Shown one piece after another: positions 22,480 through 22,634 of a DNA stretch of 32,000 nt; position 1 is the first letter of the stretch; every line of letters starts with the position of its first letter. The position numbers and the translations under genes were made by a program. The stretch is from Candidatus Baldrarchaeota archaeon (GTDB lineage: Archaea; Asgardarchaeota; Baldrarchaeia; Baldrarchaeales; DXJG01), in contig DXJG01000009.1 of assembly GCA_019056805.1 (NCBI GenBank), positions 93,710-125,709 of the forward strand, written 5' to 3'. Below the pieces are notes generated by a model. The model had not been told where the DNA came from and made no database searches. It saw only the letters and a program-made list of their open reading frames with translations.

Positions 22480-22634
22480 TGGCGGGCCCGGCGGGATTCG
22501 AACCCGCGACCACCGGGTCTCTCCCTACGCACTTTTTAGATAAAAGCTTCACCCATAGACGCCAAATCGTCTATGTCCGGCGCTCTACTTTGCCGGTTCC
22601 ATCATTTGATTACCTCTAGCTGAGCTACGGGCCC
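22480..22634 (-). tRNA. tRNA-Lys(UUU) with three introns (22589-22615 at 18/19, 22548-22576 at 30/31, 22519-22540 at 37/38) and encoded CCA
   Basis: Removing the three introns gives a 77-nt cloverleaf: GGGCCCG UA GCUC AGCUAGGUA GAGC G CCGGG CUUUUAA CCCGG UGGUC GCGGG UUCGAAU CCCGC CGGGCCC G CCA. The 30/31 and 37/38 introns form BHB motifs; the D-loop intron forms a relaxed BHB/BHL. Confidence 0.92.

Follow-up and report, generated by a model that had tools for sequence, protein, structure and literature searches.

A tRNA-Lys(UUU) gene with three short introns in a Baldrarchaeia archaeon, and the likely order of their removal

The window examined here, a 32,000-nt stretch of DNA from an Asgard archaeon (Baldrarchaeia), contains a locus that a first-pass annotation had read as a tRNA-Lys(UUU) gene split by three introns, one of them in the D-loop. 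The locus raises the questions of whether such a gene is real, where exactly its junctions lie, and how a transcript in which two introns flank an exon of only 7 nt might be matured. The gene is 155 nt long and lies on the minus strand (which the annotation had not specified), running from window position 22634 to 22480 within a 424-bp gap free of ORFs. It starts with GGGCCCG, ends with CGGGCCC-G-CCA, and is divided into segments of 19, 27, 12, 29, 7, 22 and 39 nt, all on the minus strand. Exon 1 (22616..22634, tRNA positions 1-18) holds the acceptor 5′ strand, the D-stem 5′ strand and the D-loop up to G18, and is followed by intron 1 (22589..22615, 27 nt), which interrupts the D-loop at 18/19. 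Exon 2 (22577..22588, positions 19-30) supplies the end of the D-loop, the D-stem 3′ strand, G26 and C27-G30; intron 2 (22548..22576, 29 nt) follows at 30/31. Exon 3 (22541..22547) is the 7-nt micro-exon GCUUUUA, which extends from G31 to A37 and carries the UUU anticodon, and is separated by intron 3 (22519..22540, 22 nt, at the canonical 37/38 site) from exon 4 (22480..22518, 39 nt, positions 38-76), which comprises the anticodon stem 3′ strand, the variable loop, the T arm, the acceptor 3′ strand, G73 and a genome-encoded CCA. The intron sizes of 27, 29 and 22 nt and the 7-nt third exon given by the annotation agree with these coordinates.

Excision of the 27, 29 and 22 nt at 18/19, 30/31 and 37/38 yields a 77-nt cloverleaf. 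The joined exons were identified by ARAGORN as tRNA-Lys(ttt) with a standard cloverleaf, having stems of 7 bp (acceptor), 4 bp (D), 5 bp (anticodon) and 5 bp (T), the G18G19 pair of nucleotides and a TTCGAAT T-loop. The four exons are colinear within the 155 nt on a single strand, which rules out a split or permuted tRNA gene. An A/T-rich box, AAAATATTAAATACATAAC (22681..22699, minus strand), is located 47-65 nt upstream of the gene and is conserved upstream of all seven UUU orthologues described below. It is a candidate BRE/TATA promoter, and if it does act as a TATA/BRE element, the 5′ leader would be ~30 nt long. Elsewhere in the window, an 871-aa radical-SAM ORF (23684-26299, plus strand) has a match to the Pfam family Intein_splicing over residues 127-609, directly before the radical-SAM domain, and is probably an intein-interrupted enzyme.

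The unspliced gene is missed by standard tRNA finders, as had been foreseen; this holds for both ARAGORN and the Rfam tRNA model. In the window, ARAGORN does not call it with or without intron mode, and Rfam gives no match at gathering thresholds. When the Rfam tRNA model was run against the whole genome at E <= 1, the three-intron gene was again missed among 37 matches, 26 of them above the cut-off. Only 6 of these 26 are 74-75 nt long, as expected for an uninterrupted tRNA, which indicates that most tRNA genes in this genome are interrupted, and several further ones are probably still undetected.

The junctions were placed by reference to uninterrupted relatives. The predicted mature sequence was searched against 201 genomes of the same phylum, returning many uninterrupted 77-nt matches, several of which are tRNA-Lys(UUU) or tRNA-Lys(CUU) according to ARAGORN. 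Compact Asgard tRNA-Lys(UUU) genes align with it across all 77 nt, three of them with 66-69 of 77 positions identical. A global alignment of the interrupted gene with one compact gene (G175:C15), made with no reference to splicing motifs, opened gaps at gene positions 20-46, 59-87 and 95-116, which coincide exactly with the introns as proposed, an agreement that goes beyond chance. The predicted D-loop of the UUU gene, AGCUAGGUA, is identical to that of the same compact gene, and the predicted D-loop of the CUU paralogues from the same genus, AGUUAGGUA, is identical to that of a compact tRNA-Lys(CUU) (G166:C25). Shifting either end of the 18/19 intron alters the mature sequence. The motif-free alignment to compact Asgard genes thus returns all three junctions in the places first proposed, and, with ARAGORN naming the spliced product, confirms that this is a real tRNA-Lys(UUU) gene with three short tRNA-type introns.

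The two anticodon-arm introns are bounded by BHB motifs of the kind described in the first-pass annotation, with CGCC:GGUG and an 8-bp hairpin at 30/31 and CUUU:GGAG at 37/38. Intron 2 forms a strict hBHBh′ motif, with a central helix between C25-G26-C27-C28 and GGUG (4/4 pairs), bulges of GGA and AAG, an outer helix of 4 bp (A21-G24:C32-U35), and an inner hairpin of 8 bp in the window gene and 8-9 bp across genes. Intron 3 has bulges of UAU and AGA, and its central helix pairs C32-U35 with GGAG (4/4 pairs, two of them G-U); the inner helix is 3 bp in the window gene and 2-3 bp across genes. A strict definition with a 4-bp helix and two 3-nt bulges therefore covers both sites, except that the outer helix at 37/38 is whole only without intron 2. 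This outer helix is the anticodon stem, and because intron 2 splits that stem, the contiguous part in the primary transcript is a single base pair (G31-C39). When the three introns were used as BLAST queries on the genome, no related copies appeared elsewhere, and intron transposition is thus unsupported.

Orthologues were collected from the search of relatives and from scans for exact patterns in contigs of genomes and metagenomes. Seven tRNA-Lys(UUU) genes with three introns were obtained, one from the window, two from MAGs and four from metagenome contigs, along with six distinct tRNA-Lys(CUU) paralogues. In the seven UUU genes the exons are invariant at 77/77 positions, and every variable column of their alignment is intronic. 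The BHB geometry is identical in 13/13 UUU and CUU genes examined, and 95% of the proposed BHB pair cells are paired, compared with 43-49% in controls with the partner strand displaced by 1 to 3 columns. Compensatory changes occur at three pairs, two in the intron-2 hairpin (C-G to U-A and G-C to A-U, paired in every sequence) and one in the inner helix of intron 3. The intron-2 hairpin is also predicted by RNAalifold with no structure supplied; on the unspliced genes the program recovered only this hairpin and the acceptor stem, plus alternative pairings. Four DNA sequencing runs were also checked, and contigs from three runs in two studies span the three-intron DNA with no differences; exon joints present in the runs trace to the CUU paralogue, not to an intron-less DNA copy. 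The seven orthologues and the paralogues support the exact junctions independently of the motifs.

These data bear on whether the locus might be a decaying pseudogene or an assembly artefact, a reading for which the failure of standard tRNA finders to call the gene could be cited. We regard it as extremely improbable, since the exons are invariant in seven orthologues while the introns diverge, the same arrangement recurs in independent assemblies and runs, and the genome, in which AAA ranks with the most used codons, yielded no other tRNA-Lys(UUU).

MAGs that belong to one GTDB genus or carry near-identical Lys tRNA genes (L039, L041, L042 and L044) are deposited variously as Baldrarchaeota, Odinarchaeota and Thermoproteota 'Kor1', so that three phylum labels are in use for them. 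A contig labelled Micrarchaeota (CAYSWK010000037) contains, at L040:226-480, a tRNA gene that has the same first 22 nt, a ~75-nt D-loop insert starting AG|AGG, a long anticodon-arm insert and the anticodon loop CUUCUAA.

The tRNA-Lys(CUU) paralogue in the same genome lies outside the window (G000:C17:55084-55207, locus L033:185-308, minus strand) and matches the Rfam tRNA model at 50 bits. Its exons differ from those of the UUU gene only by U34C and by C13U, which makes the D-stem 5′ strand GCTT where the UUU gene has GCTC. Its introns, of 28 nt at 18/19 and 19 nt at 37/38, occupy sites that it has in common with the UUU gene, and the boundary motifs of the two genes are homologous, AG|AGG...CCGGCAAA|G and ...GGAGAG|A. 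The paralogue has no 30/31 intron, and as a result its 37/38 motif has the full outer helix of 7 bp, compared to 1 bp in the UUU gene. In the one sister-family genome searched (G004), the pattern is swapped: among its Lys tRNA genes (L065:1450-1556, plus strand; L007:1504-1600, minus strand), the only intron in tRNA-Lys(UUU) is one of 30 nt at 18/19, and the only one in tRNA-Lys(CUU) measures 20 nt, lies at 30/31 and has a strict motif. Both non-canonical positions are thus conserved at the order level as a mosaic between isoacceptors, which suggests intron gain, loss or exchange between them.

The 18/19 intron of the window gene has a relaxed BHB motif. Its 5′ bulge is AGA, its central helix consists of an A.A mismatch followed by G-C, C-G and U-G, its inner helix is GGU:ACC, and its 3′ cut falls within an internal loop that is rich in A and closed by the D stem. 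Across genes, the 3-bp helix is G15-C/U, C/U16-G and U17-G, and the inner helix, 2-5 bp long, covaries (GGU:ACC, GGG:CCC, GGAUA:UAUCC). Inspection of the motif bore out the earlier count of 3/4 central pairs at this site: A14 stands opposite A or G, so that the strict hBHBh′ form is not attained, and in 13/13 genes of the same genus (g1) the motif has one mismatch and no contiguous outer helix. It fits the relaxed HBh′/bulge-helix-loop class.

An alternative is that the 27-nt D-loop insert does not represent an intron and is either retained as an expanded D-loop or excised at other junctions. The incomplete central helix and the missing outer helix would agree with this, and by its BHB score alone the 18/19 site does not outdo several alternatives that arise by chance within the D-region. 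A preprint census of Asgard tRNA genes also holds that some D-arm inserts that do not have the canonical motif may not be introns (10.64898/2026.10.13.758758). The 18/19 junction is preferred here because of the compact relatives, the conservation, and the strict BHB at the equivalent site in the sister family, where the G004 orthologue has 4/4 central pairs and an 8-bp inner helix. It is the sole junction that recurs in 13/13 genes and yields a 9-nt D-loop with G18G19, and this loop is identical to that of compact Asgard Lys tRNAs. The cuts set by the 4-position helix land exactly on 18/19, and the flanks of intron 1, AG|AGG...CCGG[CU][AG]AA|G, are conserved while its interior is variable and its inner helix covaries. 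Alternative D-loop junctions at X = 20, 21 and 13-15 were rejected, as they do not recur in orthologues, or give D-loops without G18G19 or of 11-23 nt. Retention would leave a D-loop of 36 nt, which has no precedent. A non-intronic or differently excised insert is accordingly considered very unlikely, and the insert is treated below as an intron bounded at 18/19.

Is the gene needed, and could the host process it? No other tRNA with a UUU anticodon was found by ARAGORN, BLAST, the Rfam model or a pattern search in the assembly, which is 91% complete; regular-expression matches resembling a second UUU anticodon arm near a T-loop were dismissed as chance matches in AT-rich sequence. In long open frames AAA accounts for ~60 per 1000 codons (~6%), 2.8x the frequency of AAG. 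The three-intron gene supplies a missing essential tRNA, without which the genome would seem unable to read AAA, and closes an annotation gap left by standard tools.

The genome encodes two EndA-family proteins (PF01974/PF02778). EndA-1 (184 aa) matches the catalytic subunit of Aeropyrum pernix (E = 1e-44), aligns with it gap-free through the Crenarchaea-specific loop (CSL), including the Lys (K39) equivalent to K44, and retains the catalytic His in a GIDHAPF motif. EndA-2 (178 aa) is closest to the EndA of Methanocaldococcus jannaschii and has Val in place of the catalytic His. The first-pass annotation had called for the subunit type of the host EndA to be determined; a catalytic EndA paired with a His-less paralogue points to an (αβ)2 enzyme, whose catalytic subunit would carry the broad-specificity L1/CSL loop. 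Asgard archaea have been reported to carry (αβ)2 EndA with the L1 loop, and the lysine of the loop to confer cleavage of relaxed motifs (Kaneta et al., PMC5829648). RtcB is also present (608 bits), so the host appears to possess both an endonuclease capable of cutting relaxed motifs and a ligase partner for it.

The arrangement of the two anticodon-arm motifs has consequences for the order in which their introns leave. The motifs overlap, in that nucleotides 32-35 form part of the outer helix of the 30/31 motif and of the central helix of the 37/38 motif, and nucleotides 27-28 belong to the central helix of the former and the outer helix of the latter. Since these nucleotides are common to both, the two motifs cannot coexist, and separate rounds of cutting and ligation are implied. 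Removal of one intron at a time would keep the 7-nt micro-exon covalently attached throughout. Of these two sites, 30/31 but not 37/38 shows a strict motif that is complete in the primary transcript, and it is likely, judging from these motifs, that the 30/31 intron is removed before the 37/38 intron.

We propose that the primary transcript is a precursor of ~155 nt plus flanks, containing three BHB-type introns, each of which would be cut by the tRNA-splicing endonuclease, with RtcB joining the exon ends. The 30/31 intron, with its complete strict motif, would most likely leave first; the anticodon stem would then become continuous, making 37/38 a standard canonical substrate. The 18/19 intron would be cut via its relaxed bulge-helix-loop motif, which has no positional overlap with the other two. 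That splicing occurs, in what order, and by an enzyme of what architecture and specificity, we infer from sequence. Overall, we consider it very probable that this is a functional gene, the only one found for tRNA-Lys(UUU), with three BHB-type introns processed by an (αβ)2 EndA and RtcB, the 30/31 intron most likely first.

The first-pass annotation had gone further, stating that the outer helix of the 37/38 motif can form only after removal of the 30/31 intron, which would imply ordered splicing. The structural part of this stands, in that the contiguous helix is 1 bp here and 7 bp in the CUU paralogue, but 'only' is too strong: with intron 2 present, the anticodon stem can close round the extruded intron-2 hairpin at a modelled cost of ~3.6 kcal/mol. 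Ordered splicing is made plausible by the nucleotides that the two motifs share and is a reasonable reading of them; it is not a necessity, as the stem is closable before intron 2 has left. In constrained partition-function folding, the 37/38 motif extended by the anticodon stem is penalised by that additional ~3.6 kcal/mol with intron 2 in place, and the core of the motif (central helix, bulges and inner helix) costs 6.7 kcal/mol with or without it. Whatever the splicing state, nearest-neighbour folding at 37 or 70 C favours none of the BHB conformers (ddG 2-7 kcal/mol), and the splicing orders are not clearly ranked by the folding model.

Two readings of the order depart from the preferred one in opposite directions. 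The gene and junctions could be as described with no obligatory order, the precursor sampling alternative folds and the endonuclease simply capturing whichever BHB forms, so that any intron could leave before any other. The equal cost of the 37/38 core in both states would allow this, as would closure of the anticodon stem round the extruded hairpin, the fact that the 30/31 motif can still form once intron 3 is gone, and the ability of broad-specificity EndA to cut motifs that have no outer helix (PMC5829648). A single binding event, however, cannot cut both sites, given the sharing of nucleotides 32-35 and 27-28, the primary transcript has a complete strict motif only for 30/31, and an intermediate in which the anticodon intron leaves first was undetected for a three-intron tRNA of Cyanidioschyzon merolae (PMC9602550). 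We think this free order possible but rather doubtful. At the other extreme, the 30/31 motif would borrow nucleotides 32-35 and the D-stem 3′ strand, cutting and ligation would take place there first, and the same nucleotides would then form the 37/38 motif, in an obligatory and conserved refolding relay from which the micro-exon is never released; the UUU/CUU mosaic would then reflect intron exchange between paralogues. This can be put forward tentatively, as a reading that falls somewhat short of an even chance. If it is true, the only AAA-decoding tRNA found in this genome matures via a fixed order of conformers. The preferred account, in which the 30/31 intron most likely leaves first, demands no such obligation.

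Triple-intron tRNAs were introduced in the first-pass annotation as a rarity known from Thermoproteales. That picture has been overtaken: the host belongs to the Baldrarchaeia within the Asgard archaea and lies outside the Thermoproteales, and heavily interrupted Asgard tRNA genes have been published. For Thermoproteales, published tRNAs have at most three introns each (PMC4033280). The three-intron tRNAs of that order likewise have relaxed motifs and an (αβ)2 EndA with the CSL/L1 loop; they belong to another phylum, however, and similar intron sequences are spread among tRNA genes there, whereas the introns of the present gene have no similar copy elsewhere in the genome.

A eukaryotic parallel is the nuclear tRNA-Ile(UAU) gene of C. 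merolae, which has D-arm, anticodon and T-arm introns (PMC3728597, PMC9602550). It resembles the present gene in its number of introns and in having one within the D arm, but its introns are located at 12/13, 37/38 and 53/54. RT-PCR detected no intermediate from which the anticodon intron had gone before the D-arm and T-arm introns, and the authors suppose that the non-canonical introns go first (PMC9602550). The intermediates were thus followed by RT-PCR in that case, while the order proposed here was derived from sequence alone.

The closest comparison is with other Asgard archaea, for which >90% of tRNA genes have been reported to have introns and over half to have several (PMC11291895), and for which a 2026 bioRxiv preprint reports up to five inserts per gene, those in the D arm being most often missed (10.64898/2026.10.13.758758). 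The published cases resemble the present gene in belonging to the same phylum, in having multiple BHB introns per gene, many at non-canonical sites, in D-arm inserts that are missed by annotators and exposed by compact relatives, and in the presence of two EndA paralogues in the host. Their focal lineages are other classes; Baldrarchaeia is mentioned 0 times in that preprint, and a full-text literature search found no paper joining Baldrarchaeia with tRNA introns. The gene is a well-supported further example of the multi-intron Asgard tRNA genes, which now extend to Baldrarchaeia, and it involves no new mechanism. What it adds to the published cases is covariation among orthologues and a pair of overlapping motifs round a 7-nt exon; this micro-exon between mutually exclusive BHB motifs provides a compact natural substrate for the ordering of cuts by a broad-specificity endonuclease.
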